A stretch of 33,996 nt of DNA from Asterionella formosa (Eukaryota). Below the pieces are notes generated by a model. That model saw only the letters and a list, made by a program, of their open reading frames with translations. It made no database searches and was not told where the DNA came from. This document shows positions 3,871 to 33,996 of this stretch, one piece after another (position 1 is the stretch's first letter; each line of letters starts with the position of its first letter). The stretch lies in assembly GCA_002256025.1 (NCBI GenBank), contig NKIB01000276.1:1-33996 (forward strand), in the 5' to 3' direction. Made by a program: the position numbers and the translations under genes.

Positions 3871-4047
3871 TCGTACATTTTATAAAATATTGATGAGAAA
3901 ATGTTTGTTTATTGGTGCCACAAAAATATATTTCACTACACAAAGTCAAATCTAAACCAACTCTCTCATCTACCGGTATCTAATTGCTTTGTCCTGTCGA
4001 TACAACTGCCGCTACTCCACAGCAATATATAAAACAATTCCTCGACC

Positions 4048-5076
4048 ATGATTGTCAAGACGAGCCGGCAGACCACCTTCCATCTCCTTCTTTCCATGCA
4101 GGGGTCAATCATTCCTGCAATCGCTCACAAAATATTGTTTGCCACCATCTTGGGCGTGATCGCCAAATTTGTGTACGACGGCAAGTTTGGAGATGATGTT
4201 GAAGCTGCTATGACCTTTTCGTTTTCGCCATTTACAGCCTTGGGAGTGGCTATTTCACTCTTCCTTGGATTCCACAACAACGCCAGCTATGGTCGATGGT
4301 GGGAAGCCCGACAAATTTGGGGAACACAAGTCGTTGCAATGCGGAACATGATTCGATTTTTCTTGGGGGTTTTGGATGTCAGTGATGACGATATCAACAT
4401 AACCGAGGAGGTAGATAAATCAGCCATTGACGGCGACGTGGAAGAGGCAGTATCGTCTGAGGATGAATCCATGGCGAGAAATTGGCGTGAAAAGATCATT
4501 TTGCTTGCCGTGGCGCAAACACATGCCCTCCGAAGTCAGCTGCGACCATCGTGCAAATCAGATACCCCACTAACAGCATTACAGGATAGAAATAGATTTC
4601 TTGATGCTGCGGATCTACTGGTGGTGGAAAATTCGCCTAACCCTGCCAACGCTATCTTGTTACACGCTAGCAAGATATTAGGACAAGCTCCATTAACCGA
4701 ATACTACATGATCCAAGGATGCATTCTGCTTGATCAACTCTGTGATATTCAAGCCAAAAGTGAGAGAATCCAAAATACATCGTTACCGTTTGCATATTCT
4801 TTATTGGTGCATCGAACTGCTTTTGTTTACGTTGTTTTGGCACCTTTTGCTATGGTAGAAGCAATGGGGTGGTGGACGCCGCTCTTCGCTGCCATTTTGG
4901 CATATACATTTTTCGGTTTTGACGAGTTGGCCCGTCAGATTCAAGAACCCTTTCAGGACGAACCTCATTGTTTGGCATTATCAGCAATGTGTCGCACAGT
5001 TGAGATTGATGTGTGTGATGCCCTAAAGCGGGAAATCCCTCAAAAACTGATACCTATAGATTCTGTCCTAATGTAA
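4048..5076 (+). CDS. Bestrophin-family anion channel, copy 2, 342 aa
   Basis: Collinear paralog of 1086-2117 carrying the same signature motifs; intact ORF. Confidence 0.92.
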   Translation: MIVKTSRQTTFHLLLSMQGSIIPAIAHKILFATILGVIAKFVYDGKFGDDVEAAMTFSFSPFTALGVAISLFLGFHNNASYGRWWEARQIWGTQVVAMRNMIRFFLGVLDVSDDDINITEEVDKSAIDGDVEEAVSSEDESMARNWREKIILLAVAQTHALRSQLRPSCKSDTPLTALQDRNRFLDAADLLVVENSPNPANAILLHASKILGQAPLTEYYMIQGCILLDQLCDIQAKSERIQNTSLPFAYSLLVHRTAFVYVVLAPFAMVEAMGWWTPLFAAILAYTFFGFDELARQIQEPFQDEPHCLALSAMCRTVEIDVCDALKREIPQKLIPIDSVLM

Positions 5077-8057: not shown

Positions 8058-9797
8058 TTATGGTATTATGAACCCATTTATATTCCGACCTCTTGTGCCC
8101 TTCATACCATCCTTTCTTTGTCGTCCTCCTTTTCCAGTGTGAGGTTTCGGTGAAGGAGCGACGACAGCAGAATAACCATCGTCGTCAGCTGGACCTACTT
8201 TGTCGTCATTTGGTGGACCTTCATTGTCATCGTCTGCTGGTCCAATTTTGCTTCCCATTCCCATCATGCCCATTCCCATCATATCCATCCCACCTTTACC
8301 CATTCCCATCATATCCATCCCACCTTTACCCATACCCATCATATCCATCCCACCTTTACCCATTCCCATCATACCCTTCCCAGCCTTTTCCATGTTTTTA
8401 CTCTTCCCCATACCCATCATGCCCATAACTTCTTTACTCGTTCCCATTCCCATCATGCCCATAACTTCTTTACTCTTTCCCATTCCCATTCGCATTCCCA
8501 TACTGCCCTTGCTCATGCCCATAACAGTAGGCACGTCTGGAACATAGGGTGCATAAAAGGGAGCCACTGGTCTCCCGTACGGGGCAACTACAGGGGACAC
8601 AACGGGAGGTACAACTGGAGGTACAACGGGAGCTGCGACGGGAGATGCAACTGGAGGTGCGACGGGAGGTGTAACAGGAGCTGCGACGGGAGCTGCAACA
8701 GGAGCTGCGACGGGAGCTGCAACAGGAACTGCGACGGGAGCTGCAACAGGAGCTGCGACGGGAGCTGCAACAGGAGCTGCGACGGGAGGTACAACAGGAG
8801 CTGCAACGGGAGCTGCGGCGGGAGATGCAACTGGGGCAAGCGTAGCAGTCTTAGGTAGTGGGGATGGAGAAGTAGTAATTGGAGCAACAGTCTCTTGTGG
8901 CGGAGGCGAAAACGCTGACGGAACAGGGGTCCCTACGGTCCCTGTTGATGGAGCAGGGGTCCCTGCGACCCCTGTTGACGGAGCTGCAGCGGGAGCAATT
9001 GTGCCATCCATGCAAGCACACGGCGCGACATAAACAGAAGTAAAGGAACATGTCAGTTCGTCAATAGAGCCGTCTAACCCCAAACGCTGATATTCTTCAC
9101 ATGTTTCCGGAGGCATTCGGTTATCGACATTTGCGGTTGGGTTTGTAACAACCTTTCCTGTACCACAAACTGAACATGTAGGATATGTCCCTCTTGATGT
9201 CGCAGCAGTAGGTAGACTAGTTGCTGAGGGAGCAGCCGCCGGAGCTTGGTCTATAGAAGATACAATGAATCTGGAGTAGTAATATATGCTTTCAACACTG
9301 TCGTTGTCGACGACAATTGTCACATCCAAGGGCATGTCTGCTGCAACTGCATCCAAATTAAGATAGGCAGTAATGGTAGTCTTGTCGTCGCTAGTAGTAT
9401 GCGTAATTCCCCCAACACCCGCTGCTGTACAGAGAGGAGATACCTTCAGCTGACTGTCAGTGTTGCCATCAAAGGCAAGATCAGTCATGGCTCCTGTTTC
9501 CCCTAATCGTATAAGGAAACCCTTGAATTGCTTGCTACTTGAATTTATTGTCAAGGAAGTTTTGGTATTAATGGGGAAGGTGAACGTTTGGAATTGAGCA
9601 AGAACGGAGTCTCCCAGAGTGACAGAGAAGCCTCCATCTGAAAGGGGTCCAGTGTTGATGGGTTTCCCGGTGGCCACATGGCTCTCCCCAGGTTGTCCAA
9701 TGGCATCGGCGCCTTCAGCACAGCTGCCAGCGCCATCGGGATAGGCAAGCACTGACTTGCACAACGCTGCAAAGACGAGAGGAGTAAAAAAGAGCAT
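8058..9797 (-). CDS. Secreted Reeler-like + 6-Cys domain + Pro/Ala/Val stalk protein with Met/Gly/Lys tail, copy 1, 579 aa
   Basis: Signal peptide MLFFTPLVFAALCKSVLA-YPDG; Reeler-type motifs YPDGAGSC, FKGFLIRL and GITHT...K; CSVCG...C...C...CAC domain; (PVAA)n stalk; MGMGKGGMDM repeats. First ATG is at 9797. Confidence 0.85.
   Translation of the reverse strand: MLFFTPLVFAALCKSVLAYPDGAGSCAEGADAIGQPGESHVATGKPINTGPLSDGGFSVTLGDSVLAQFQTFTFPINTKTSLTINSSSKQFKGFLIRLGETGAMTDLAFDGNTDSQLKVSPLCTAAGVGGITHTTSDDKTTITAYLNLDAVAADMPLDVTIVVDNDSVESIYYYSRFIVSSIDQAPAAAPSATSLPTAATSRGTYPTCSVCGTGKVVTNPTANVDNRMPPETCEEYQRLGLDGSIDELTCSFTSVYVAPCACMDGTIAPAAAPSTGVAGTPAPSTGTVGTPVPSAFSPPPQETVAPITTSPSPLPKTATLAPVASPAAAPVAAPVVPPVAAPVAAPVAAPVAAPVAVPVAAPVAAPVAAPVAAPVTPPVAPPVASPVAAPVVPPVVPPVVSPVVAPYGRPVAPFYAPYVPDVPTVMGMSKGSMGMRMGMGKSKEVMGMMGMGTSKEVMGMMGMGKSKNMEKAGKGMMGMGKGGMDMMGMGKGGMDMMGMGKGGMDMMGMGMMGMGSKIGPADDDNEGPPNDDKVGPADDDGYSAVVAPSPKPHTGKGGRQRKDGMKGTRGRNINGFIIP
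8250..8523 (-). repeat. Coding tandem repeats: 30-bp unit (MGMGKGGMDM x3) and 36-bp unit (MGMG(K/T)SKEVMGM x2)
   Basis: cccattcccatcatatccatcccacctttac occurs about three times; ccatcatgcccataacttctttactc occurs twice. Confidence 0.9.
8590..8835 (-). repeat. Coding 12/24-bp repeat encoding (PVAA)n/(PPVV)n
   Basis: ggagctgcgacg and ggagctgcaaca alternate. Confidence 0.9.
9241..9769. repeat. Near-identical duplicate of 12076-12604 (Reeler-like head of copies 1 and 2)
   Basis: Ungapped alignment at offset 2835; about 14 mismatches in 529 nt by hand count. Confidence 0.92.
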
Positions 9798-10769
9798 CGT
9801 GTGCCGTCTCGTTTGGGATATTTTTAAAAGTATGACTAAGCAATTCAAACGATAGCAACTTTCATGGTACCTAACCGTCGTAATGGAACTTATTTCATAC
9901 TTCGAGCAAGACTGAAGAAGGAGGCGCGCCGTGGAGGGCCTAAACCCGGTAGAGTTACCGGATCAAGTCTACCGGGTAGTGAAAACGCAAATGAATATTT
10001 TAAGCATCGCGCACCAGAATTCAACGCATGGGTACTGTATGCATTTAAGGAGAACAAAACATGCTCACTCGCATGCATGGAGTGATTCCCCAAACAAACT
10101 CAAAATCCTTAAATAGAACTCAAACCCATGATTGATTGATTTAAAAAAAAATATATATGCTGACCAGCGAGTGTGCACATGGGACGAAATGGGAATATAT
10201 GGACAAGTTAAAACCTTTGTTGACCCTCCCCTACTATAATGCAATCTTTCGACAAGTTAAATAACTCAAATCTCCTCTATATTCTTAGTTTTAAATTGTG
10301 AGTCGTTACAATCGACCAAAAATTCAAATTTTCGGCTTGGCGAAGGCTAAAACTGCGACGCCGGGCAGGGACACTGACAGTTCCATTGCGCACGCGTTTA
10401 TTTGCGTTAGTCGTTTGTTCGTCAGCTTCAAGTTACAGAGACTTAGAGGTCAGATGTGACAGGCAATCCGCACGACAGCTTTGTCAAGGTTTCGTCAGAG
10501 CCAAAACGGAAACACTTCCCAATTTTCACTCCATGTGCCTTCGCAAATGTATGATCCAAGAGTAGCATAGAGCAGCCATGGTTCAAGTGCTGGAGACTCA
10601 GATTACACACCGATCATTCCACCCATGCCTCGCATGTCCTTCATAGGCATTGTATAAACCATTGCTGTACGATTCATTGAAGAGCCAATCTCAACCACAC
10701 CAATAGTTCCCATTTTATGTTTTCCCACACCAAGAGGTCGCATATTACGACTTCCAATGCCACCATTTT

Positions 10770-12632
10770 TTAAGCATTTCCCATATCATGCTTTCCAATG
10801 CCACGAAGTCCTACACCAACATTTCTCATGACAGGCATTCTCATATGTTGCTTTACGATGACAGGCATTTCAATTTCATTGATTCCCGTGCCACGCAATA
10901 CCGGACCACCAATTCCTCCACTCTTCATTCCCATTCCCTTCATCCCAAGACCATTCATTCCCAGATCCTTGATTCCCATTCCCTTCATTCCCACACCATT
11001 CATTCCCATACCATTCATTCCTAAATCATTCATTCCCATAACATTCATTCCCAAACCATTCATTCCCATAACATTCATTCCCAAACCATTCATTCCCATA
11101 ATATTCATTCCCAAACCATTCATTCCCATAATATTCATTCCCAAACCATTCATTCCCATAATATTCATTCCCAAACCGTTCATTCCCATAACATTCATTC
11201 CCAAACCATTCATTCCCATAACATTCATTCCCACACCATTCATTCCCATAACATTCATTCCCATAACATTCATTCCCAAATCATTCATTCCCATAACATT
11301 CATTCCCACACCATTCATTCCCCAATCATTCATTCCCATAACATTCATTCCCATGACATTCATTCCCAAACCATTCATTTCCATTACTTTCATAGGTGCG
11401 ACAGCAGGTACTACTGGAGGTGGGCGAGGGGACACAACAGGAGGTGCGACGGAAGGTGCCGCTGTCGGTGCAACTATAGGTGATACTGGAGATGCGACAG
11501 GAGCGGCACTTGGATCGTTGGTGGCAGCAGAATCTCCTGGGGAACCTACTGGAGGGGAACTTGGAGGATTGGTCATGGGGATAGGAGGAGAGAGCAACAC
11601 GGGAGGAGAAGTCAAAGGCACCACAGGAGTTGCAGGTACAGGAGCTGAAGTTGCTGAAGGAACAATAGGGGCAGTGCCAAAAGGAGATATTGCTGGACTA
11701 CTAGCAGAGAGGTTAGGCGATGGCGGAATTGGGGCGATTGATACAGGAGTGCTAGGAACAACAATCGAAGGAGCTGATGTCACCAGTGCAGGAGTGGAAA
11801 GAGGCATGCTTCCTGGAATGCATCCGCAGTTTGTAGCAAGGCCTACCAATTGAGGGCAGGTTACAGGATTGATGTAACCCATTGAACCAGCAAATTGGAA
11901 AATTGAACACGATGTGTTGTTCTGTCCCGGAGGTTGGACGACACCATCTGGGATGGAAACGACCATTCCTGCGCCACAAACTGAGCACGGAGGGTAGCCA
12001 GGGTTGGGAGGGGGAGTCCGAATGTTATCAGCTACTGGATCAGTTACCCCAGCAGTAGGAGGAGCAGTATCCACTGGAGCTTGGTCTATAGAAGATACAA
12101 TGAATCTGGAGTAGTAATATATGCTTTCAACACTGTCGTTGTCGACGACAATTGTCACATCCAAGGGCATGTCTGCTGCAACTGCATCCAAATTAAGATA
12201 GGCAGTAATGGTGGTCTTGTCGTCGCTAGTAGTATGCGTAATTCCCCCTACACCCGCTGCTGTACAGAGGGGAGATACCTTCAGCTGACTGTCAGTGTTG
12301 CCATCAAAGGCAAGATCAGTCATGGTTCCTGTTTCCCCTAGTCGTATAAGGAAACCCTTGAATTGCTTGCTACTTGAATTTATTGTCAAGGAAGTTTTGG
12401 TATTAATGGGGAAGGTGAACGTTTGGAATTGAGCAAGAACGGAGTCTCCCAGAGTGACAGAGAAGCCTCCATCTGAAAGGGGTCCAGTGTTGATGGGTTT
12501 CCCAGTTGCTACATGGCTCTCCCCAGTTTGTCCAATGGCATCGGCGCCTTCAGCACAGCTGCCAGCGCCACTGGGATAGGCAAATACTGACTTGCAGAAC
12601 GCTGTGATGAGAATGAAAGCAGTGAATCTCAT
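10770..12632 (-). CDS. Secreted Reeler-like + 6-Cys domain + Pro/Ser stalk protein with (GMNxx)31 tail, copy 2, 620 aa
   Basis: Signal peptide MRFTAFILITAFCKSVFA-YPSG; same head as copy 1; pentapeptide-repeat tail. Confidence 0.87.
   Translation of the reverse strand: MRFTAFILITAFCKSVFAYPSGAGSCAEGADAIGQTGESHVATGKPINTGPLSDGGFSVTLGDSVLAQFQTFTFPINTKTSLTINSSSKQFKGFLIRLGETGTMTDLAFDGNTDSQLKVSPLCTAAGVGGITHTTSDDKTTITAYLNLDAVAADMPLDVTIVVDNDSVESIYYYSRFIVSSIDQAPVDTAPPTAGVTDPVADNIRTPPPNPGYPPCSVCGAGMVVSIPDGVVQPPGQNNTSCSIFQFAGSMGYINPVTCPQLVGLATNCGCIPGSMPLSTPALVTSAPSIVVPSTPVSIAPIPPSPNLSASSPAISPFGTAPIVPSATSAPVPATPVVPLTSPPVLLSPPIPMTNPPSSPPVGSPGDSAATNDPSAAPVASPVSPIVAPTAAPSVAPPVVSPRPPPVVPAVAPMKVMEMNGLGMNVMGMNVMGMNDWGMNGVGMNVMGMNDLGMNVMGMNVMGMNGVGMNVMGMNGLGMNVMGMNGLGMNIMGMNGLGMNIMGMNGLGMNIMGMNGLGMNVMGMNGLGMNVMGMNDLGMNGMGMNGVGMKGMGIKDLGMNGLGMKGMGMKSGGIGGPVLRGTGINEIEMPVIVKQHMRMPVMRNVGVGLRGIGKHDMGNA
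10917..11381 (-). repeat. Coding 15-bp tandem repeat, about 31 units with 30-bp higher-order period, encoding GMNVM/GMNGL
   Basis: cattcattcccataa and cattcattcccaaac units, in frame with the 10770-12632 ORF. Confidence 0.95.
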
Positions 12633-13698
12633 CGTGTCGCTATTGGTAAAGGAATTCCAAAAAATAAGAGTTGAATTGAATAGACGCGACCCGACGGTTG
12701 AGAGGGGTGCGCCATTGTTATGGAATCACTGACGCGGCGCACCGACAAGGGGTTAACATGATAGGCATAAGTCATGAACAATGCGCACCTTCTCATCTGA
12801 AGTAACATACGCGATACTCCCTCATCAACTGCCGGGTGGAAAAAATATTTGAGCTCACGAAATAATGTGACGGCCGCGTGTGAGAGCAAACGAACCGTCA
12901 ACCGCAACAACCCGTTAGGTAAAGTTGAAGTGGCTTTCTGTCGAACATGGCTCTGGTGTCCGTCTTAGTAGCTGGCGCATGATCTCTTTATTCAGTATTT
13001 TAGCATTTATACGTCGTACTCACTGCAATGAAAAGCACATGAGCACAGTTATGTGGGGTATGTTAAAGTCCAATCGCTATCATCACGTAAAATTAATATA
13101 CCGTAGGCAACTATAAAACAAATTAGAAAACAAATATCAGTTCTCGCCGAGATCACGCTAAACGTAGGCTTGATGACATGTTAAATTATGGCATGTAATG
13201 ACTCTCAACATGTTATTCCTAAATAGAATTCACATGTGCATTAGAATTTATGCAATAATAAAATGATAAATTAAACAAGACCAATAATATGATTGAGTGT
13301 TGAGATACCGTAAAGCGCTCATCCAAGGATATGTAGAGAGAGGATACAGGTTTACGAAATGTACTTCTATTAGTCTAGTCTCGATTACTTCAATGCAATT
13401 ATAAATGAATTCATTAATACAGAAATCGTGAAGCTTATACTTTTGTTGGTTATATAAGACATTGCTGTGTTGTCCATACTATCTCAGTCAGGATGTTTTA
13501 GACCGACTCAACCAAATCTGGGGAAATGAAAGTATACACTAATAACTGAATGATGGGTTCTTTGCCAGCACCTATAGACACAGTAATGTACCGGGTAATT
13601 GCATTTCTAGTCAGTGTATATAGTTTACGATGATGTATTAGTCTTCACAGCTGTCTATGGTTTACAAAAGCGATATCAAATCAATTGCATCAAACGAG

Positions 13699-15651
13699 CT
13701 AACTGAGTCGACCTCGATAGCCTTTCTTAGTTTCCTTTCCTTTGTCACTGGCCTTTCCCTTCTTTTTATTCTTTCCCTTTTTACCTGCATTCTTCCCTTT
13801 GCGTCCCATTTCCTTCTTCAGCTTCTTTGACTTCTTCTTTGCTTTCTCACCCTTCTTTTTCCTTGACTTCTTTTTCTTTGACTTCTTTTTCTTTGACTTT
13901 GATCCTTTCTTCGACCTTCCTTTGCCCCCCATCATGTTTGAACCACCACCACTATAAGAAACGGGTGGGAGATTTGGAGCAACAATTGGAGTAGCAACCG
14001 GAGGAACAATTGGACGAACAACTGGAGTAGCAACCGGAGGAACAACTGGAGGAAAACCTGGAGGAACAACTGGAAGAACAACTGGAGGAACAACTGGAGG
14101 AACAACTGGAGGAACAACTGGAGGAACAACTGGAGGAATAACTGGTGGAACAACTGGAGCAGCAACCGGAGTAACGGCTGGAGAAACGATTGGAGGAGCA
14201 ACTGGAGCCAAAACCGGAGTAATGGTTGGAGGAACAACTGGAGCAACAACCGGAGCAACGGCTGGAGGAACAACTGGAGCGAAAACCGGAGTGACGGTTG
14301 GAGAAACAATTGGAGGAACAACTGGAGCAGCAACCGGAGTAACGGCTGGAGGAACAGATGGCATACCAGTCATGGTTGACGTACTGGGGGGTTTCACCGG
14401 AGCACCAGTCAGGGAGCTTGGGGCAGAAGATGGGGCTCCTGTTGTAAGAACTGGAGCGACAATTGGAGCACGAGACACTGGAGCAACCGTTTGAAGACCA
14501 GAAGGAGAGATGGAAGGCCCAAGAGTAGTAGTTGTTGGAACGGTTATGGTGGGACCTGTAACAGGAGCTAGTGGCGCTGAAGTCACAGGCGCAATGGAAA
14601 CTGGAGCCGTCGTTACAGGAGCATCTGTTGTTACAATGCCACTGGGATCTGGAGTTGTTGCAAGAATAACAGGGGCTGTTGTCATAACAAGTACCGAAGG
14701 GGGGACTGTTGGTTTTAGGACAGTTGGAACTGCAGTCGGAATAGTAGTACCAGTAAGAGCTAATGGAGCAGCAGTTGTTGGGGCAATCGTGGCAGCAGCA
14801 ACCGGACTGGGAGCAACTGTCCCATCGGCACAGCCACAGTTCGACACGAGCACAAACACCAAAGGACACTGCGAAGAAACAATATAACCTTCATACCCAA
14901 ACGATTGGAAGGCAAGGCACGTGGTATTAAAAGCAGAAGAATTACCAAAAGCAGGAATTTGAACAGTTGTGTCCGGGTTATTGATAACCTTTCCTGAACC
15001 ACAAACTGAGCATAAGGGATACCTGGGGCTAGGAGGTAAAGCGATTGGTAAAGCGGTCGGTGCAGAAGTAATTACTGGAGCAGAAATTTCAGTAGTTGCT
15101 GCGGTAGCAGTCAAAAGGAATCGAGTGTAATAGTATTCACTAATTGCCCCCTTGTTCTCAACGACAACGGTCACATCCAAAGGCATATCAGATGCAACAG
15201 CATCTAGATTTATATATGCAGTAATGGTGGTCTTGTCGTCACTAGAAGTATGCGTAACTCCTCCTACGCCCACTGCTGTACAGAGGGAAGATACCTTCAG
15301 CTGACTGTCAGTGTTACCATCGAAGGCAAGATCAGTCATGGCTCCTGTTTCCCCTAATCTTATAAGGAAACCCTTAAATGGCATGTTATTCGTAGCTATG
15401 GTCAAGGACGTTTTGGTATTAATGGGGAAGGTAAACGATTTTGATTGGGCAAGGACAGTGTCTCCAAGAGTGACAGTGAACCCTCCATCTGAAAGGGATC
15501 CAGTTGTGATGGATTTCCCAGTTGCCACATGGCTCTCTCCAGGTTGTCCAATGACAGCCGCGCCTTCGGAACAGCTGCCAGCGCCATCGGGATAGGCAAG
15601 AACTGGCTTGCACAGAGCACTGATGAAGCATAAAACTGCAAATCGCTTCAT
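13699..15651 (-). CDS. Secreted Reeler-like + 6-Cys domain + Thr/Pro/Val stalk protein with Lys-rich tail, copy 3, 650 aa
   Basis: MKRFAVLCFISALCKPVLA-YPDG signal peptide from ATG 15651, which aligns with the paralogs (an upstream in-frame ATG at 15672 is possible); (PPVV)n stalk; tail roughly half Lys. Confidence 0.87.
   Translation of the reverse strand: MKRFAVLCFISALCKPVLAYPDGAGSCSEGAAVIGQPGESHVATGKSITTGSLSDGGFTVTLGDTVLAQSKSFTFPINTKTSLTIATNNMPFKGFLIRLGETGAMTDLAFDGNTDSQLKVSSLCTAVGVGGVTHTSSDDKTTITAYINLDAVASDMPLDVTVVVENKGAISEYYYTRFLLTATAATTEISAPVITSAPTALPIALPPSPRYPLCSVCGSGKVINNPDTTVQIPAFGNSSAFNTTCLAFQSFGYEGYIVSSQCPLVFVLVSNCGCADGTVAPSPVAAATIAPTTAAPLALTGTTIPTAVPTVLKPTVPPSVLVMTTAPVILATTPDPSGIVTTDAPVTTAPVSIAPVTSAPLAPVTGPTITVPTTTTLGPSISPSGLQTVAPVSRAPIVAPVLTTGAPSSAPSSLTGAPVKPPSTSTMTGMPSVPPAVTPVAAPVVPPIVSPTVTPVFAPVVPPAVAPVVAPVVPPTITPVLAPVAPPIVSPAVTPVAAPVVPPVIPPVVPPVVPPVVPPVVPPVVLPVVPPGFPPVVPPVATPVVRPIVPPVATPIVAPNLPPVSYSGGGSNMMGGKGRSKKGSKSKKKKSKKKKSRKKKGEKAKKKSKKLKKEMGRKGKNAGKKGKNKKKGKASDKGKETKKGYRGRLS
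13985..14350 (-). repeat. Coding 12-bp repeat (PPVV) with about 60-bp higher-order units
   Basis: ggaggaacaact tandem units; PAVTPVAAPVVPP blocks recur. Confidence 0.88.
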
Positions 15652-15733
15652 TTTCCGTTTTCCCTCGTACATAAAAAGTGGAGCACTTTGAAAAATGTGA
15701 ACTCAAATTTCAACAATGTTATGAGTACACTGT

Positions 15734-16030
15734 GTACCAGGTATACCTGTGCAACCTGGAGTACCTGGTACCTGGTACCACATTGAAAAGATGATTTGTA
15801 ACCGCAAAAGGTGCGCAATATGACCGGTACCTGGTACCAATGTACCTGGAGTACTAATGCTAGCATTACCTTCTAGGACCTGGTACCCTACTTGGTATAC
15901 AACATCCCGTATATACTTATGTGGATTCTTGCAATTTCCGGTATTCCTTTCAAGAGGGGCGGAAAACATTTCTAATATGATATCTTATCGTCATGATACT
16001 GGTACCTGGTACCTGGTACCCCGGTAACCA
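15734..16030. repeat. GGTACC/CCTGGTA motif cluster upstream of secreted copy 3
   Basis: gtacctggtacctggtacca at about 15761-15780; ggtacctggtacctggtacc at 16001-16020. Confidence 0.75.
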
Positions 16031-16791
16031 GTACTCACATCAGCAAGGAGTGGTAATAAATATATCAATCTGTACGTACTCACTACCGGTACAGGCATGA
16101 GGATTGTTATGATTATTCCCGGCATGCGTGTATAACATAGAAGCTCAGTCATATACGGTAATCTATATGTATGGTACTATACCCGTATCATATACCAGTA
16201 GTATTCTATATGTGGAACAAAACACATGTCACAAAACCCGGAAACTGTTTTGAATATCATCACGATAATTCATCTCGCTCGTTGCTGTCCCCTTCCTGTG
16301 GGAAAGAATGCCACAGGGACGAGAGAAGAGCCAAGTGACAAAGAGAGAGCGAGAAAACATAAAAGAAATCATTATACTAACTATAAAAGGAGAAATATGT
16401 TGTCTCATAGTTTGTACTCGTCCATGTCAGCCATCATCATAAATCACATATACATTGCTTACATAGATGCAATGAATTATGTAAAACAATTCACATGGTG
16501 ATAGCATAGAGTTGAGCTGATTTTAGGATGTGTTGTAGTAAAAAATTTACATCGGGCGATCACGAGGATTGAAAAAAATATGAGAAGATTTATGATATTG
16601 ATGAGAAATGTTGTTGATCAGTTGATATACATTGTGTGATGAAAATGTTCTTACTATCATTTTACTTCAAGGTCGTTAAAATATTTATAAACCATCATAG
16701 TTATAGGATACCTTGATCATAGTTTTGATCCAAAAATTATCATATATACGAAAATCCTGTGCCACTTAGCTTACGATACCCTTGATCCTAT

Positions 16792-18377: not shown

Positions 18378-18415
18378 GGGCGGGGGGGGGGGGGGGGGGG
18401 GGCGGGGGGGGGGGG

Positions 18416-18457
<42 letters not shown>

Positions 18458-18536
18458 GGGGGGGGGGGGGGGGGGGGGGGNNNNNNNNNNTATACTTTTA
18501 ATATTTGTGTTACTCCCCCCCCCCCCCCCCCCCCCC
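18378..18536. other. Assembly gap (10 N at 18481-18490) flanked by a poly-G run on the left and a 22-nt poly-C run (18515-18536) on the right
   Basis: Directly visible in the sequence. Confidence 0.95.
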
Positions 18537-18884: not shown

Positions 18885-21421
18885 TTGGCTCTGGGGAACT
18901 GTTTTTTCGTCGCCATGGACTGGAACTATACAAAATTTGAATACTATCTGATTACCAAAGAGGAATCAAAAGTCGAAATCAAGTTTACTTCTGGAAACGA
19001 CTTAACAACTTACATGATAATCCCACAAAAAATGTTCAAGATGGTCCTCGGAACCTGGGGGCAATGCTTACACGACCTGAAGGCAACAACAGGGATGAAT
19101 AAAAAAAATTGGTAGCAAAAAGGAAAGCAATGAGTCTGAACATTTCGGCTTCGACACTGAAATTCCATGAGGCTTTGCTAGCATATCAGACCATGATTCA
19201 TCCGGCAATGAAGTGGTATCCACTATGTGCTCCTACATTTACTATCCAACAGTGCCAACAAATAGATCGGTCATATTTACCAACTTTGTCAACAAGGATG
19301 GCTTTTAATAAAATGACCAAATGTCTCGTCCTATTCTTTGGTCCGCCGAACTTGGGGCGGGGCATATGGCTTTGCAGACACTTAGTACACAGCAGACCAA
19401 GTAATTGCACAACTACAAATGCTATTGGGCCATATGCGCCACAATGACGAGATCGCTCAGCTTATTTACATTTTACTTAAGCATTCACAAATACAAATGG
19501 GGGTGTCCGGCAAACCATTCCAATTTTCCATGGCCCCGTCCATGAAATACATCAAATCTAATTGGATTTCATCGGTATGGAGGTTTATTAATGACCTGAA
19601 AGCTACAATACACATTGAAGATGAGTGGCAATTAAATCCCCAGAGGATGAATGACAGATGCCTTATGGATATATTCAATAGCAACCACTTGCGTTTACAG
19701 CCCAAGGAATGGGAAAAATAGTCTCTATCAAGGATACATTTGAAAATTTTGACACAGACCATGGGAGATTTTGTTTTCCCGTCAAATATCCTTCACTTCA
19801 GAGAAAGTCTGGTTTCTGGATTAGTGGTTCTGGCGTCGGATGGATCCCTTATAGCCACTCCACCTGCAATGATCGCTACTCATGGGTGGAAGTTACATGA
19901 TCGAAAAACCAAAGAACAGGCATATGTTCATGTATGCATGGGTTCCTAGCGGGGGCCAAGAAATGTCCTCACTTAGCTCAGAGAGAGGTGGACTTTTGGG
20001 TGGAATGGCGGCCATTTCTTATCTTTTAATGGTTGAGCTGTCAGTTACTCCAGGTAAAAGAATATCTCTGAGTGTTTATGTAGATAGCTTAGCCCTGATA
20101 TCTCGGATCAAACGGTTGAAATATGGGGGCCCATCTGGCACACTTCGTACCACAGATTATGATATTTTGCAACTGTCAATGCATTGTGCTGAAGAACTAG
20201 TAAATATTGATTTGATTCCACACCATGATATTAAGGCTTGCTCACTAAAATGATGACGACAAATTATATGATCAACTAGTATCCTGGAAGGCAAAACTAA
20301 ATTTCGATTGCTAGTACCATCAAGCTGCACAAGTGCGGAGTTGTATGAAATGTGCTAAAACATCACAGGTATATCAGCTGCCCCCAGGGGATAAAGTCAC
20401 TTTACAAATTGGCTCCACGTATTTTACTACTCAACTTTCGTTGGCCATAAGAAATGCAATGTACAGAGAAAAAATGGTGCAATACATAATGAAATGCGCA
20501 GGATGGGACACTATTTTTGTCTTTGATTTGGTCGACTGGGAAGCTTGCAATCTAGCATGGCAAAAGGTACGGGGATCGAAGAAAATGACAATCTTCAAAT
20601 TAGAATTTGATTTACTGGCGACTTTTAGGCGTCGCTCGAAATACAACCGTACAGTCGACAACAGGTGCTTTCGGTGCAAACGACGAAGCGAGGAAGTGAA
20701 TCACATAATCTGATGCCTGGGTTATCAAATAGACATCTTCTGGTCACACATTTTGCAGAGAAAGTCTTACAGGATAGTGGCAACTCATGCCAGTATCATA
20801 CTACACAAAAATTTAAGGAAGGTCTGCAACAGTGGCTCAATTTTGAACCAGAGAGGTGGGTATGCCCAATACCCCTTGAAACAGATGTTGTGGTACGGCT
20901 AGCTAACCTTTTAGGCAATTGTGAATCAAATCGATATTGGCTGGGGTCAGCCAGGCCTTTAGAGGGAGACCATCACGGCCTGCCTTTCAAGCCGCTAAAG
21001 ACATGGGTGACTCAAAAGACAGGGGATATTGGAGGGCGCGAGTAATAAAAGGACTATGGCAAGTCATAATCAAAAGATGGATCCATCGCAATGAGGAACT
21101 ATATGGAAAGACAGCGGAGGAACAAATTGCAAAGATTACCAACAAGCAGAGAGGTTGAAGATAAGATTCGAACAAGATCAAGGGAAAGTGCTGCATGAGG
21201 AAGATAAATCTTTTTTCCTTCTTTCCATAGAAATAAGCATACGTCGTCACTCTATATCTCAAAAACTTCAGTGGATTGAATCAGTAGACATGGCAGTCAA
21301 CGCGTGGTATCGAACACAGCAGGCTGTTGGAACCTTGGAAGGCGGAGCTCTGCTTCACCTTGCCCCTTGCTTATGGCAAAGAAATCACGGCTGGTGCCCT
21401 AGTAGGGTTCGGAAGAAATAG
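18885..21421 (+). mobile_element. Degenerate, 5'-incomplete non-LTR retrotransposon (RT C-terminal/thumb region, RNase H, CCHC finger, C-terminal W-x-x-R-N motif)
   Basis: Frame-shifted + strand ORF pieces in canonical order: LGNCFFVAMDW; AYQTMIHPAMKWYPL...FFGPPNLG; LLGHMR; VLASDGS (19836), SSERGGLLG, VYVDSLALI, IKA and AKLN (RNase H); CFRCKRRSEEVNHII-x-C; GLWQVIIKRWIHRNEELYG. Boundaries are approximate. Confidence 0.8.
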
Positions 21422-25259: not shown

Positions 25260-25336
25260 TGGTACCAGGCACTGGGTACCAGTACCAGCTACACCACCAG
25301 GTAGTTAGTACCAGGTACCAGGGTACCAGTACCAGG
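25260..25336. repeat. GGTACC/ACCAGGT motif cluster in the divergent intergenic region between the CID and rhodanese genes
   Basis: ggtaccaggcactgggtaccagtaccag...gtaccaggtaccagggtaccagtaccagg; taccggta words at about 25099-25142. Confidence 0.75.
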
Positions 25337-27038: not shown

Positions 27039-27835
27039 AAGGTACGCCGACTTCGTCTTGTTTATATCTTGTCGCACTTGAGAATGATGTAAATGCCGCA
27101 GTGCCCGAGGAATAAGCCCCGAGGGTCTGACTAAACGAGGTGCCTGTTGGAATCGGTCGGAGTCAAATACCGATTTCACGGACCATTTTATATTACCCTT
27201 GACGTTCGGCATCACCACTGATTCAAGTTTCTGCTACGAGATGATATTGGTTGATCGCTTGACAATTTTTCTCTGAGCTAACTTTAGCCAATCTTTTTGC
27301 AGGTTCCAAGAAAATGGGCTTCCCACTTCCTGGAAGATCCGTCGGCTTGTATGTAATGAGCTCAACCTCATCAATTTCTGATTTATACTTGCCATTTTCT
27401 GCTCCCTTCAACTTTGAAGGAATGATCATTGGACTATGTAAGTATGGGTAACGCGAGTATTCCCAGAACTAATTTGAAGGGTGACTACACGAGAAACTAA
27501 CGCAGAAACGGACTACAAAGTAATACTTGGATTGAAAAAAAATTGTTGAATGTTGCTGTTTATGCGACGTGACTAAGCTGTTCAGACGATCTCGGTATCT
27601 TTGTCAGGCGAAGGCAAATGAATTTAAAACAACAGAAAAACTAAGACATTTTACTAAACATGTTCAGTTCATACCAACCATTCCTAAAGTAGATAGCCTC
27701 AGAAACAAAAAGTTTTCCAATAATTACTGATCTATTCTCGTTTAAAATGACAAAACATCAAGGTCAATATGCACCTGTCACATTGTTGCACACCAGTCTC
27801 CCTTCCTCATGTAGATCTTGCGGCAAATTTCTAGT

Positions 27836-28136
27836 CCATCTCACGACATCGATGCAGAGGAAGGGCGTAGTTGAGCCACTTGTTATGTTCGTACACTTCC
27901 TTGGTTTCTTCCATAAATTCATCAAGCACTTCCAGTGACGATTCCAACTGACTGTCCAAGCTGTTGTAGAATTCAACAACATCTTCCTCATTAGTGCAAA
28001 GTCTTATAATCAACCATACAGGAAGTCCTTCGAGGGATTTCAGGGCATTCACAAGGTACCTTTTCGTGCTTTCATTGCATGTACTAAAGCCATCGGTAGC
28101 CAAAATAACGGCAACCTTTGTTCCATGTTGTCGCAA
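27836..28136 (-). pseudogene. Internal fragment (about 300 bp) of the VWA gene at 33172-33996
   Basis: Aligns to 33441-33756 with high identity; has a 15-bp deletion; homology ends abruptly on both sides; stop directly after REMD. Confidence 0.88.
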
Positions 28137-28276
28137 AATGTGAGTAAGCAAATCGTGTTTCGAGCACGATGAGGTTCGGCCTAAAATTATACCGTATATG
28201 TTTATGACGTCATGTATTTTTCCATATAACGGTGAGAAAATACGGAAGTCGAAAAGAATGCTATCGGTATGACACT

Positions 28277-28397
28277 CTGGTACGTGTACCCTGGGGCGTA
28301 CGATAGGTACCAGGTCATGATTCAGAGGAACTATCTTATGACCTGGTACCAGGTACCTGGTACTCTGTACCAAGTACCATGATGTACGATTAGTACC
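28277..28397. repeat. GGTACC/CCWGG motif cluster upstream of the cyclin gene
   Basis: acctggtaccaggtacctggtac at 28341-28363, containing the palindrome acctggtaccaggt. Confidence 0.75.
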
Positions 28398-28580
28398 AGC
28401 TATATAAAATGCGGCTGAAAATAATGATGTACCCGGAGCATGAATACAAGACACACAAAACATTCATCTATCGCAAAGATGTAACGGTGATGATAAAGGT
28501 GTGCTTTGCATCACCTTTTATTACTCTAAACCTGTTTCTTTTGGCTAACAACGATAGAGGGGGCAATAGTCGCGTGAAAC

Positions 28581-29501: not shown

Positions 29502-30689
29502 TTACATGATTGCACATCTACATCCACTACCTTGCCCATAGGCATGCTCCTTGTAGGTCTCAGCCAATTTCTTCACATCCACCCATGGACTTAACTTCTT
29601 TGTAATAGGGTTCCATTGCATGGGCTCCATCTCTAACAATTTACTCACATGCAGAAGAAAGCCTTTCATGTCACCTTGAGGGTCAAACCTCATGACAGAA
29701 TCATCTAACAGTAGTCTGAGGAATTGTCGGACTTCGTCAATAGCCAACTGTTTTTCATCAAGCAAGTCAAATAGCTTATTGCTGTAACCCATCTCACGGC
29801 ATCGGTGTAGAGGAAGGGCATAGTTGAGCCACTTGTTATGCTCGTACACTTCCTTGGCTTCCTCCATGAAATCGTCGAGAACTTCCAATGACAATTCCAA
29901 CTGGCTGTCCAAGTTATTGTAGAATTCAACAACATCTTCCTCGTCAGTACATAGTCTTATAACCAACCACACAGGAAGTCCTTTAAGGGAGTTCAATGCG
30001 TTTACAAAGTCCTTCTTCGTATGGTCATCGCACATACCAAATCGATCAGTAGGAAGTCCATCGGTAGCCAAAATGATGGCAACCTTGGTTCCGTCTTGTT
30101 GCAATGTCGGTAGCAGTTCCATCAAATTTCGTCGAATCTCATGAACATGTGCAACCAATGGAGTAACGCCATCTGGAGTTGTATTAATCATTACAGAACT
30201 GGCTTGGGCGACTTCCTGCTCGAGATCTCCTTGTCCATTTTCACCAATGCTAAATTGCTGGGGCCCAACTGCTCTTCCAGGATCATTTAGGAGACGAAAG
30301 ACTGTTGGAGCTTGCAAAAGAGCTGCCATTTGGACATGATAATCGACTGTCTGCTGAATCTCATTCCATCGTGTGCAGGAGACCATCTTGACATGTTTGT
30401 TTTCGTTTGATTCAACTAGTCGATGTCCATCCGATGTAACCATGGACCCGGAATTATCAACTACCCAGATCCGCAAGGGAAAGGCTGCATTATTCTGTGT
30501 CATGGTCCTGGCCAAACCATGGGTAAATCCTTGTTCCCGCATGGCGTCGATCTCTATACTTGACATGGCTTTTGATTTTTGTATTGGCATCTTGATATGA
30601 CTTACGCGGCCCATGTTGAAATTTTGCGGGGGTGGCATTGCTGTGTCCCCTACAGGCACGTAATAGATTGGGATATCATCGACGTTCAT
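29502..30689 (-). CDS. VWA-domain protein with C-terminal CaaX (CAIM), 395 aa
   Basis: MIDAS elements RIWVVDNSGSM, GVTPL and IILATDGLP; ends GSGCRCAIM*. Confidence 0.88.
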   Translation of the reverse strand: MNVDDIPIYYVPVGDTAMPPPQNFNMGRVSHIKMPIQKSKAMSSIEIDAMREQGFTHGLARTMTQNNAAFPLRIWVVDNSGSMVTSDGHRLVESNENKHVKMVSCTRWNEIQQTVDYHVQMAALLQAPTVFRLLNDPGRAVGPQQFSIGENGQGDLEQEVAQASSVMINTTPDGVTPLVAHVHEIRRNLMELLPTLQQDGTKVAIILATDGLPTDRFGMCDDHTKKDFVNALNSLKGLPVWLVIRLCTDEEDVVEFYNNLDSQLELSLEVLDDFMEEAKEVYEHNKWLNYALPLHRCREMGYSNKLFDLLDEKQLAIDEVRQFLRLLLDDSVMRFDPQGDMKGFLLHVSKLLEMEPMQWNPITKKLSPWVDVKKLAETYKEHAYGQGSGCRCAIM

Positions 30690-31059
30690 CTCTTGCTGGC
30701 CTTAATCTCTTCTTAATTTGCAATTTCTTTGGCCTCCTGTATTGTGATTTTGGCAACAAGGATGACAGCTCCTCACAAGCAAATTCTTTTTTTAGTCGTG
30801 GCTATACTAGCTTCACAAATTACCGGTAGGATCCCGAACTTGAGCATCAACCAGACGCCAAACAATGTTACTAAACTACCTGTATCATGTAGAGTCAACT
30901 TGTAGAGAGTGATTTACTATACCGGTATGTGCCAGGTATGATGACATTTCGATGCATGAGATCCCGAACCCTTGTTAACAGTCCCAGGTTTCACGATTGA
31001 ATCTTGTTGATGGTGCTACTAGGGTCATACGGAACATACGGGCTTACGCTAAGTTGCAT

Positions 31060-31116
31060 ACCAGTACCGGTATACCGGTACCAGGTACCAGGAACCAGGA
31101 ACCAGGTACCAGGTAC
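31060..31116. repeat. 7-bp tandem (ACCAGGW)x5 plus TACCGGTA words upstream of the VWA gene
   Basis: accaggt accagga accagga accaggt accaggt at 31080-31114, preceded by taccggtataccggta. Confidence 0.85.
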
Positions 31117-33171: not shown

Positions 33172-33996
33172 TTACATAACTGTACATCCCCCACGCTTCC
33201 CCTTATAAATCTTGGCCAATTTCATAGTATCTACCCATGAACTCAAATTCTTTGTATTGGGATTCCATTGCTTAGGCTCCCTATCCAACAAGTTATTCAC
33301 GAGCCGAAGAAAGCCTTTCATGTCACCTTGGGGGTCGACAGTCATGACAGAGTCACCCAACAACAGCCTCAGAAATTGACGGACTTCGTCGATAGTCAAT
33401 TGCCGCTCATCGAGCAAGTCCAAGAGTCGATTATTGTAGCCCATCTCACGACATCGATGCAGAGGAAGGGCGTAGTTGAGCCACTTGTTATGTTCGTACA
33501 CTTCCTTGGCTTCTTCCATAAAATCATCAAGCACTTCCAGTGACAATTCCAACTGACTGTCCAAGCTGTTGTAGAATTCAACAACATCTTCCTCATCAGT
33601 GCAAAGTCTTATAACCACCCATACAGGAAGTCCTTCGAGGGATTTCAAGGCGTTTACAAGGTCCCTTTTCGTGCTATCATTGCATGTACCAAAGCCATCG
33701 GTAGGAAGTCCGTCGGTAGCCAAAATAATGGCAACCTTGGTTCCGTCTTGTCGCAATTTAGGTTCTAGATTGAGCACATTTTGTCGAATCTCAAGAATGT
33801 GGGCGACCAATGGAGTAACGCCAGCCGGAGTAGCATTTAGCATGACAGACTGCGCTAGTACTACTTCATGGTCGAGATTGTCTGGTCCATTTTCGCCAAC
33901 GCTGAATTGCTGGGGCCCAACCGCTCTACCAGGATCATTGAGGAGACGAAAGACAGTAGGCGCTTGCAAAAGGGCCGCCATTTGGACATGGTAATC
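33172..33996 (-). CDS. VWA-domain protein paralog with C-terminal CaaX (CTVM); 5' end lies outside the window
   Basis: The frame is open to the window edge (DYHVQMAALLQ..., matching the 395-aa paralog); GVTPL and ILATDGLP; ends KIYKGKRGGCTVM*. Confidence 0.88.
   Translation of the reverse strand, partial: DYHVQMAALLQAPTVFRLLNDPGRAVGPQQFSVGENGPDNLDHEVVLAQSVMLNATPAGVTPLVAHILEIRQNVLNLEPKLRQDGTKVAIILATDGLPTDGFGTCNDSTKRDLVNALKSLEGLPVWVVIRLCTDEEDVVEFYNSLDSQLELSLEVLDDFMEEAKEVYEHNKWLNYALPLHRCREMGYNNRLLDLLDERQLTIDEVRQFLRLLLGDSVMTVDPQGDMKGFLRLVNNLLDREPKQWNPNTKNLSSWVDTMKLAKIYKGKRGGCTVM

Follow-up and report, generated by a model that had tools for sequence, protein, structure and literature searches.

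Three tandem genes with a common modular build

What is known of diatom wall-coat and mucilage proteins comes from a few model species. The stretch of DNA analysed here (the window) comprises positions 1 to 33,996 of contig NKIB01000276.1 of the diatom Asterionella formosa, and within 8058..15651 it carries three tandem, intron-free open reading frames (ORFs) on the minus strand, termed copies 1 to 3, each encoding a signal-peptide-like N-terminus, a Reeler-like head, a six-Cys module, a Pro-rich stalk and a repeat tail. Their products seem to be modular secreted matrix proteins with low-complexity tails, of a known kind, built from two apparently undescribed diatom modules: neither the Reeler-like head (1146 clusters) nor the six-Cys module has a diatom description in the literature searched. 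An earlier note on this DNA had singled out three same-strand genes with a common N-terminus, head, six-Cys module and Pro stalk, and the ORFs lie where it placed them. Signal peptides were predicted by a Kyte-Doolittle hydrophobicity scan and are given with their best 11-residue mean (KD11); aa stands for amino acids.

9797 (ATG) to 8058 (stop), minus strand: copy 1 ORF, 579 aa
9744..9797, minus strand: copy 1 predicted signal peptide, aa 1-18, KD11 2.30
9249..9743, minus strand: copy 1 Reeler-like head, aa 19-183, Pfam Reeler E 0.038, 15 bits (cut-off 21)
9012..9185, minus strand: copy 1 six-Cys module (CxxC...C...C...CxC), more diverged than those of copies 2 and 3
8526..9005, minus strand: copy 1 Pro/Ala/Val stalk, P 28%, A 25%, V 21%, 12-nucleotide (nt) tandem unit
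8247..8525, minus strand: copy 1 Gly-Met-Lys repeat tail, 10-aa unit GMDMMGMGKG
8058..8246, minus strand: copy 1 tail end, an acidic PADDD/PNDD segment followed by basic residues and the stop, read from the sequence
12632 (ATG) to 10770 (stop), minus strand: copy 2 ORF, 620 aa
12579..12632, minus strand: copy 2 predicted signal peptide, KD11 2.35
12084..12578, minus strand: copy 2 Reeler-like head, aa 19-183, from the beta-sandwich model, Foldseek and ESM features
11820..11996, minus strand: copy 2 six-Cys module, small alpha/beta model
11394..11813, minus strand: copy 2 Pro/Ser/Ala/Val stalk, P 29%, S 17%
10923..11393, minus strand: copy 2 (GMNxx) pentamer array of 31 units, 26 of the 31 beginning with GMN, all in register
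10770..10922, minus strand: copy 2 degenerate tail end and stop, identical end in public proteins P0197 and P0196
10603..10782, minus strand: stop-free -1 frame after the copy 2 stop, 59 codons, 37% Gly+Met
15651 (ATG) to 13699 (stop), minus strand: copy 3 ORF, 650 aa
15595..15651, minus strand: copy 3 predicted signal peptide, KD11 2.70
15109..15594, minus strand: copy 3 Reeler-like head, 77% protein and 83% DNA identity to copies 1 and 2
14830..15021, minus strand: copy 3 six-Cys module, read from the sequence
13957..14823, minus strand: copy 3 Pro/Val/Thr/Ala stalk, 289 aa, VVPP repeats
13699..13956, minus strand: copy 3 polycationic tail and stop, 42% Lys, net charge +37

The N-termini consist of 18-19 hydrophobic residues with a V-x-A end before Y-P, and the heads of relatives begin at the equivalent F/Y-P residue, about 17-30 aa into the protein; the hydrophobicity (KD11 2.3-2.7) agrees with the secretion-type N-terminus that had been proposed. 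The heads measure 162-165 aa and the stalks 140-289 aa (27-29% Pro), and each protein has nine or ten Cys, six of them within the single CxxCG module. No hydrophobic end of the glycosylphosphatidylinositol (GPI) type is present in any copy: over their last 25 residues the three proteins are hydrophilic (mean Kyte-Doolittle values -1.2, -0.3 and -2.2), as the earlier note had held in denying them a transmembrane or GPI-type C-terminus. The most hydrophobic 19-residue segments (mean 1.8, copies 1 and 3) fall within the Pro-punctuated stalk. N-glycosylation sequons number 2, 5 and 2 in copies 1, 2 and 3.

A head that is Reeler-like by fold

Modelled from an alignment of 21 heads of the same genome, the head is a predicted beta-sandwich (predicted local distance difference test, pLDDT, 85.4). 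Foldseek matches it best to the Reeler domain of F-spondin (E 4.2e-6, TM-score 0.51), which takes eight of the first ten rows. ESM features point the same way, with scores of 0.93 to Reeler clusters (low recognition) and arthropod Reeler proteins as the nearest Atlas clusters. The Pfam Reeler model (PF02014) gives 15-15.2 bits for the whole proteins and 18.7 for the copy 2 head alone, below the gathering cut-off of 21; it matches 14 of the 21 heads of the genome at E<=0.1, and three relatives exceed the cut-off (P0019, 22.5 bits; P0044, 32.1; P0091, 22.4). The heads are thus Reeler-like in their modelled fold, as had been suggested, with scores short of formal PF02014 membership. No match to the head was found in NCBIfam or in a sequence search of the PDB. 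Compared with F-spondin Reeler (PDB 2zot, 3coo), they are alike in fold (TM-score 0.51-0.53) and in their N-terminal place in a secreted protein, but share 12-15% identity and are partnered by diatom modules. One homodimer prediction for the head, run without an alignment, scored 0.00 and speaks neither for nor against a dimer.

Reeler domains have a Cys pair and His motifs and stand at the N-terminus of secreted proteins. Near-invariant residues, counted within diatom-type heads and without alignment to those of animal Reeler domains, are two Cys (139/140 and 150/150), two His (147/147 and 143/149), an Arg and a Lys. In a wide structural search the first rank went to cytochrome f (Z 9.2, root mean square deviation 3.0, 134 aligned residues, model 1-165 against chain 1-247); an unrelated BBSome chain scored Z 8.6, copper-binding YcnI came fifth and Reeler sixth (Z 7.9, deviation 3.4, 115 aligned). 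The invariant His lies about 19-22 residues after the F/Y-P N-terminus and the cytochrome f match starts from residue 1, a possible metal or haem site.

Could the proteins handle metal or haem at the cell surface, the head binding through its free N-terminal amine and the invariant His, and the Met-rich tails soaking up Cu(I)/Ag(I) or oxidants? Cytochrome f ligates its haem by an N-terminal amine and a His, and Met clusters bind Cu(I); the conserved His pair, the F/Y-P start of the mature protein and the high ranks of cytochrome f and YcnI would suit such a role. We nevertheless consider it very unlikely, as cytochrome f lies within 1 Z of the BBSome chain and 1.3 above Reeler, the CxxCH haem attachment motif is absent from the head sequence, the His is kept whatever tail follows (a Met-rich block occurs in only 6 of the best 150 relatives), and a Pfam scan of the window found no metal-related neighbour genes. 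Among the 20 papers listed, of 221 retrieved for the pairing of Reeler with cytochrome f, none uses the term 'reeler domain'.

The head family and its alternative C-termini

In its own genome the head has 27 matches, or about 24 genes once obvious duplicates and fragments are removed; genome searches used single proteins, so that paralogue counts here and below are lower bounds. The wider family comprises 1146 clusters at E<=0.001, and relatives bearing taxon names are diatoms, including Seminavis, most relatives carrying no name; together the named relatives of the triplet (Seminavis, Synedropsis, Nitzschia) uphold its proposed diatom affinity. Among the best 150 of the 1146 clusters, classed by thresholds of our own, a hydrophobic C-end is present in 45, a K/R-rich block in 13, a Met-rich block in 6 and a Pro stalk in 78; 19 consist of the head alone and 6 carry the six-Cys module, of which two or more may be from this same organism or cut gene calls. 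The motif C[EQR]G[DS]C, which we take to be the ACR-type motif of frustulins, occurs in 9 of these 150, including a Seminavis protein. Within the genome, heads stand alone or are joined to GPI-like hydrophobic ends, Hint, Cys-rich domains or a His/Met/Arg tail, and fusions of the head to Hint and to fasciclin exceed the Pfam cut-offs. Four relatives that come from other sources (P0002, P0019, P0025, P0086) have the identical head-Cys-stalk build followed by a short mixed Gly/Met/Lys/Ser/Asn tail. A metagenome scan with the full head alignment gave 18 loci, none with a six-Cys module.

Judged from these sequences, the head is a promiscuous module displayed on alternating C-termini across the family, and the search proposed earlier for the same head with other tails thus succeeded family-wide. 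Because hydrophobic ends and Lys blocks alternate after the same head, the tail may be an anchor. The earlier note's picture of a kit in which a common head is combined with alternative tails therefore holds for the family; within the triplet it lacks support, the tails there not being three swapped cassettes (see below).

Several family members deserve mention in their own right. A second tandem triplet of Reeler-like heads (L028-L030, G000:C14113:18338-33934) has a Pro stalk and three Cys-rich domains in each protein; these domains have no clear Pfam match, and one relative matches ShK weakly. An identical protein encoded on two contigs (L039:2110-3657 and L040:4097-5644) joins the head to a Cys knot-like segment, Hint (Pfam E 8e-21) and a hydrophobic end. 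Nearly identical heads precede different bodies in L032:4365-5489 and L031:3060-4865, the former with a short stalk bearing (MHGG)n and an Arg-rich tail, the latter with a long stalk ending in Lys/Trp. At L036:3097-4262 a head gene is split across two frames, with an intact paralogue on contig C5337, through a frameshift, an intron or an assembly error. Many relatives, P0005, P0056, P0078, P0081, P0117, P0029 and P0156 among them, end in a short basic motif of the R-x-L-R/K type, which suggests a shared C-terminal processing or sorting signal.

The six-Cys module and head-less paralogues

The model of the six-Cys module is a confident small alpha/beta unit (pLDDT 86.6) with no Pfam match, a best Foldseek E of 2.6 and a best Z of 3.1 in the wide structural search; the lack of a match in these lists does not show a new fold. 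The module recurs in pennate diatom proteins (29 matches), in multiple copies in Synedropsis and Nitzschia inconspicua, and a Synedropsis protein with eight modules has a short K/G/M tail as well. Its Atlas cluster scores are below 0.9, and the clusters are Bacillariophyta. Its own genome has at least ten matches, none of them on the other head-bearing contigs.

Three of the paralogues, L047 (G000:C4585), L049 (C3146) and L050 (C5544), lack the head altogether. A signal peptide like that of copies 1-3, a YPxGxG remnant and an RXL motif are followed directly by the six-Cys module, and then by a Pro stalk, PDDD(Y) segments and KxxK-rich tails, with 14 K[SG][SG]K motifs in L049 and 8 in L050. Since these three have no head, the head is optional in the six-Cys sub-family; the earlier assumption that the common head is the constant part does not survive, as they keep the Cys module, stalk and Lys tail without it. 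The copy 2 module is closer to that of L050 (63% identity) than to that of copy 1 (36%); the copy 1 module is 43% identical to that of copy 3.

Probable homogenisation of two heads

Over the 495 bases of the head, the DNA of copies 1 and 2 is 98% identical, with 11 differences (7 synonymous and 3 replacement codons); the identity falls to 78% in the signal peptide and 64% in the six-Cys module. In trees the three heads form one clade (100/97), and their six-Cys modules do not group together in a module tree of poor support (2 of 19 branches starred). The disparity between 98% for the heads and 64% for the modules points to gene conversion, which would have homogenised heads 1 and 2 over about 500 bases. 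Three public proteins (P0001, P0008 and P0194) join the N-terminus of one copy to the body of the other. One RNA contig likewise has copy 2 letters within the copy 1 head; these mixed forms may be conversion alleles or assembly chimeras, their exact phasing being unsure.

Conservation of the head also bears on a role in recognition or defence, with the head binding microbes or parasites and the stalk and tail aggregating them. Insect proteins consisting of a Reeler domain alone are reported in defence, and this is a large, fast-evolving, tandemly duplicated surface family whose nearest Atlas clusters are arthropod Reeler proteins. The head, however, is conserved and homogenised, the opposite of what an arms race would lead one to expect, and we regard this role as a long shot.

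Transcripts and strain variants

Of 24 sequencing runs listed, 20 contain the stretch or part of it, with labels of algae, lake or freshwater metagenome; four were compared as contigs, three of them RNA runs and one a DNA run, which stem from no more than three samples and three studies. Among the pieces listed, RNA contigs span the stalk-tail joint of copy 1 in one of the three RNA runs (X13, record 2) and those of copies 2 and 3 in all three (X13, X6, X9), and no splice joint inside the three genes appears. The check proposed for tails that are spliced out or untranscribed thus came out in favour of the tails: contigs cross every stalk-tail joint. This is good but not final evidence that copies 1-3 are transcribed with their tails, as RNA libraries can carry DNA. 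The RNA runs leave uncovered bins between the genes (in X13 also over parts of copies 2 and 3) that the DNA run covers, a weak hint at three separate transcripts, from contigs that cannot prove absence.

Strain indels inside the coding tails and stalks are in frame and comprise whole repeat units of 15 nt: a deletion at 13863 in tail 3 (runs X9 and X6) and another at 14703 in stalk 3 (run X6). An independent assembly of copy 2 (P0197) has 32 pentamers against 31. One X13 contig shows a cluster of small gaps at 14280-14296 that looks like misplacement in a repeat.

Composition and history of the tails

Three chemically distinct tails had been claimed. Tail 1, 155 aa long, contains 26% Gly, 22% Met and 11% Lys, has three PADDD/PNDD segments and a net charge of +6; tail 2, with 207 aa, contains 27% Gly, 25% Met and 14% Asn and has a net charge of +3. 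Tail 3 has 85 aa. Aligned as DNA around their common Met-Gly-Met core, tails 1 and 2 reach a score of 93, where codon shuffles give 31+/-5 and none of 300 does as well; tail 3 aligns to tails 1 and 2 no better than codon shuffles (42/300 and 151/300), shuffle nulls being lenient for periodic repeats. By sequence, tails 1 and 2 are homologous Gly-Met expansions, alike in bulk composition, and only tail 3 differs, so that the claim of three distinct chemistries has to be given up. The other part of the description of copy 2, its (GMNxx)31 array, is accurate: its 31 pentamers keep register, and 26 begin with GMN.

Protein comparisons extend the likeness to the head-less paralogues. Tail 1 scores against tail 2, L049 and L050 exceed all 200 shuffles, P(A)DDD segments like those of copy 1 are present in L049 and L050, and tail 3 bears a modest likeness to L050 (equalled by 2 of 200 shuffles) and to L047 (7 of 200). 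No relative of the GMN tail emerged from 57 candidates of 364-2000 aa (weak evidence), and the array has only weak compositional matches in its own genome. The simplest history would be that the tails are expanded sub-repeats of one short ancestral tail and not swapped cassettes: an ancestor with head, Cys module, stalk and a short G/M/K tail would have been duplicated in tandem, slippage expanding different sub-repeats, heads 1 and 2 becoming homogenised and copy 2 losing the end of its tail to a frameshift. Tandem duplicates abound in pennate genomes (PMC7335047). Much of the striking look of the locus is probably explained by tandem duplication, slippage and gene conversion.

The frameshift proposed for copy 2 lies at its stop, after which the -1 frame stays open and rich in Gly+Met; none of 5000 base shuffles yields a frame of this kind, and the flanks of copies 1 and 3 give 2-14% Gly+Met. 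Because all four runs, without an indel, and two further assemblies carry the early stop, we read the open frame as a relic: most likely a fixed one-base loss cut off the end of the tail. An assembly error or an intron at this stop was rejected, no indel or splice joint being present in the four runs and the two other assemblies having the same end. An in-frame G-GGA-AAU heptamer stands three bases before the stop, and reading of the -1 frame by programmed ribosomal slippage would be the alternative; it is very improbable. A one-base loss from the Met-Gly-Lys codon run itself leaves such a heptamer, and the RNA structure downstream is weak (z -1.4 to -2.5), with 16-24 of 200 shuffles as good for two near stretches and 5 of 200 for a 137-nt stretch.

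Slippage raises the question of whether the tails matter at all. They could be neutral, slippage-prone low-complexity DNA having expanded after duplication while all copies do the head's job in the same place. The one DNA repeat core common to tails 1 and 2 would be expected of such tails, as would unit numbers that vary among strains, the 59 codons that the frameshift took off copy 2, the GMN array without a relative among longer proteins and with weak matches in its own genome, and the weaker constraint on tandem duplicates in Seminavis (PMC7335047). All indels seen inside coding tails and stalks nonetheless preserve the frame, a 157-aa array at 25% Met is costly yet in register, and copy 3 stands at least 30 net charges away from copies 1 and 2; on balance neutrality seems to us unlikely.

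Proposed function and comparison with known systems

We favour, at about even odds (a probability near 0.5), the reading that copies 1-3 are secreted, unanchored surface-coat proteins of a pennate-type diatom, resembling mucins or hydroxyproline-rich glycoproteins, in which the Lys tail would serve as an electrostatic anchor and the Gly-Met tails as cohesive elements. Cleavage of the signal peptide would release a mature protein whose Reeler-fold interaction head and small disulfide module are held off the cell on a stiff Pro/Ala/Val stalk, a polyproline rod that is probably hydroxylated or glycosylated. The tail would replace the GPI-like end of many relatives and retain the protein in the organic coat of the frustule or in mucilage; the Lys block of copy 3 may bind anionic silica or polysaccharide, and the Gly-Met expansions of copies 1 and 2 would more likely self-adhere or stick to matrix. 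Lys clusters direct proteins to the frustule (PMC9650480, PMC5501833).

Several observations weigh against this reading or the history attached to it. Compared with the short tails of P0002, P0019 and P0025, the window tails never beat residue shuffles (best 22/200), the likeness being one of composition, and because it rests on composition and position, descent from a single ancestral tail is the less secure; the lenient shuffle nulls and the poorly supported module tree count on the same side. Repeat numbers vary and copy 2 is shortened by 59 codons in every run and assembly compared, as expected for weakly constrained tails. The stalks contain 13-24% Ser+Thr, which makes them less mucin-like than trail proteins, and Lys-rich regions of one cingulin have been deleted or mutated without mislocalisation (PMC9650480).

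By analogy, copies 1-3 would work most like the mucin-like surface and trail proteins of diatoms. CaFAP1, CaTrailin3/4 and Ca5609 of Craspedostauros australis are secreted, modular and Pro/Thr/Ser-rich, with six-Cys modules that have no known domain (10.1101/2023.03.06.531300); the six-Cys repeats are likened here by description. Copies 1-3 resemble the CaFAP1 type in combining Pro, Thr and Ser (27, 25 and 35% of the protein) with a Cys-rich module, and differ in having a single Cys module in place of alternating repeats and a stalk rich in Ala and Val. The available descriptions of trail proteins mention no Reeler domain or Gly-Met tail, and the three translations contain no choice-of-anchor A or GDPH domain (no Pfam match at E<=0.1, no GDPH motif).

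Frustulins also have secreted Cys modules on Pro-rich linkers and belong to the organic coat (PMC4557024). The module of copies 1-3 is, unlike theirs, of the CxxCG...CxC and not the acidic-repeat type, and occurs once per protein; frustulin identity was rejected, multiple ACR domains being absent.

A further possibility is that the proteins are silaffin- or cingulin-like, entering the silica deposition vesicle and forming or patterning silica, copy 3 through its Lys block. With the silaffin-like proteins and cingulins of Thalassiosira pseudonana they share a predicted signal peptide, low complexity, Pro-Thr repeats and, in copy 3, a Lys block (PMC5501833, PMC9650480, 10.1101/2021.09.18.460806), differing in their folded N-terminal domains, the lack of RXL behind the signal peptide and the consecutive Lys of copy 3. 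Copy 3 fits the published pentalysine expression (10.1101/2021.09.18.460806) at four overlapping places (K..K..K.{1,2}K..K; background 1.5% in centric proteomes), matches that rely on consecutive Lys, falling to 0 in non-consecutive form and to 1 under a looser five-in-12-to-14 rule. By the features of the silaffin-like screen (PMC5501833), K[SG][SG]K occurs 0, 0 and 1 times in copies 1-3, RXL is absent from copies 1 and 2, which also lack a pentalysine cluster, and the sole RXL of copy 3 lies within the head (aa 177); silaffin identity in the sense of that screen was rejected for want of repeated KXXK motifs and of an RXL cleavage site. Silica proteomes do contain Met-rich SMSM motifs (10.1101/2021.09.18.460806), and L049 and L050 combine RXL behind the signal peptide with their many K[SG][SG]K motifs; they score 0 under the published pentalysine expression. 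A direct part of copies 1-3 in silica formation is very unlikely. The head-less L047, L049 and L050 are the better silaffin-like candidates.

The nearest characterised analogue is CfSMP1 of the Crepidula fornicata shell matrix, which pairs a Reeler domain with a disordered Gly/Gln C-terminal tail (PMC9365450). It resembles copies 1-3 in following a Reeler domain with a Gly-rich tail and belongs to an extracellular biomineral matrix; it differs, by its available description, in its length (275 aa), its 45-aa tail, the lack of a described Cys module or Pro stalk and its calcium carbonate mineral. The earlier statement that no characterised protein has this architecture stands, in the literature searched, for the exact four-part build, and has to yield to CfSMP1 for the pairing of Reeler with a Gly-rich tail. 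In that literature, which leaves most subscription papers outside, no description of a diatom Reeler protein family was found.

For the Gly-Met tails a further analogue may be considered. Abductin is the Gly/Met-rich elastomer of the scallop hinge ligament; it resembles tails 1 and 2 in its short-period Gly/Met repeats, by composition only, and tail 2 is rich in Asn, Val and Leu and has no Phe. A bolder view, for which we see little prospect at present, is that the head is an overlooked display module that binds a ligand or metal through its free N-terminal aromatic-Pro amine and an invariant His on a cytochrome f-like fold, and that pennate diatoms route it by its C-terminus, to the membrane by GPI or Hint-derived lipid, to silica or polysaccharide by Lys, and to a self-assembling mucilage biomaterial by Gly-Met(-Asn). 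These polymers would then, as part of the same rather speculative claim, be an elastomeric or coacervate material, and the triplet with its conversion-matched heads might conceivably amount to a natural tail-swap experiment. If (GMNxx)31 self-assembles, it would be a new protein material. Near-identical heads with very different tail charge, together with the head-less paralogues, offer natural constructs for studying how low-complexity tails address proteins.

Other features of the window

The genes around the triplet are unrelated to it: bestrophins, a short-chain dehydrogenase, CID, rhodanese and cyclin. On the plus strand, 984-2117 and 4033-5076 are tandem bestrophin genes of bacterial/fungal type (Pfam Bestrophin_2, E about 1e-69). 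Three related minus-strand ORFs without a Pfam match (27831-28463, 29502-30701 and 33172-33996) carry DNSGSM and ATDG motifs, which presumably recall vWA domains; one looks like a fragment, and the ORFs have a cyclin-N gene in their midst. At 18378-18480 an assembly gap shows as 100 bases of poly-G with Ns, and broken ORFs at about 19100-21420 resemble, by eye, a decayed retroelement. In the flanks of 11 genes, a comparison for common regulatory elements turned up only a GTACCAG-type repeat and overlapping windows. Heptamer repeats of this kind (GTACCAG/GTACCTG) are intergenic at 15730-16100, 25308-25336 and 31073-31116, occur also upstream of several paralogues, and look like a genome-wide simple repeat.

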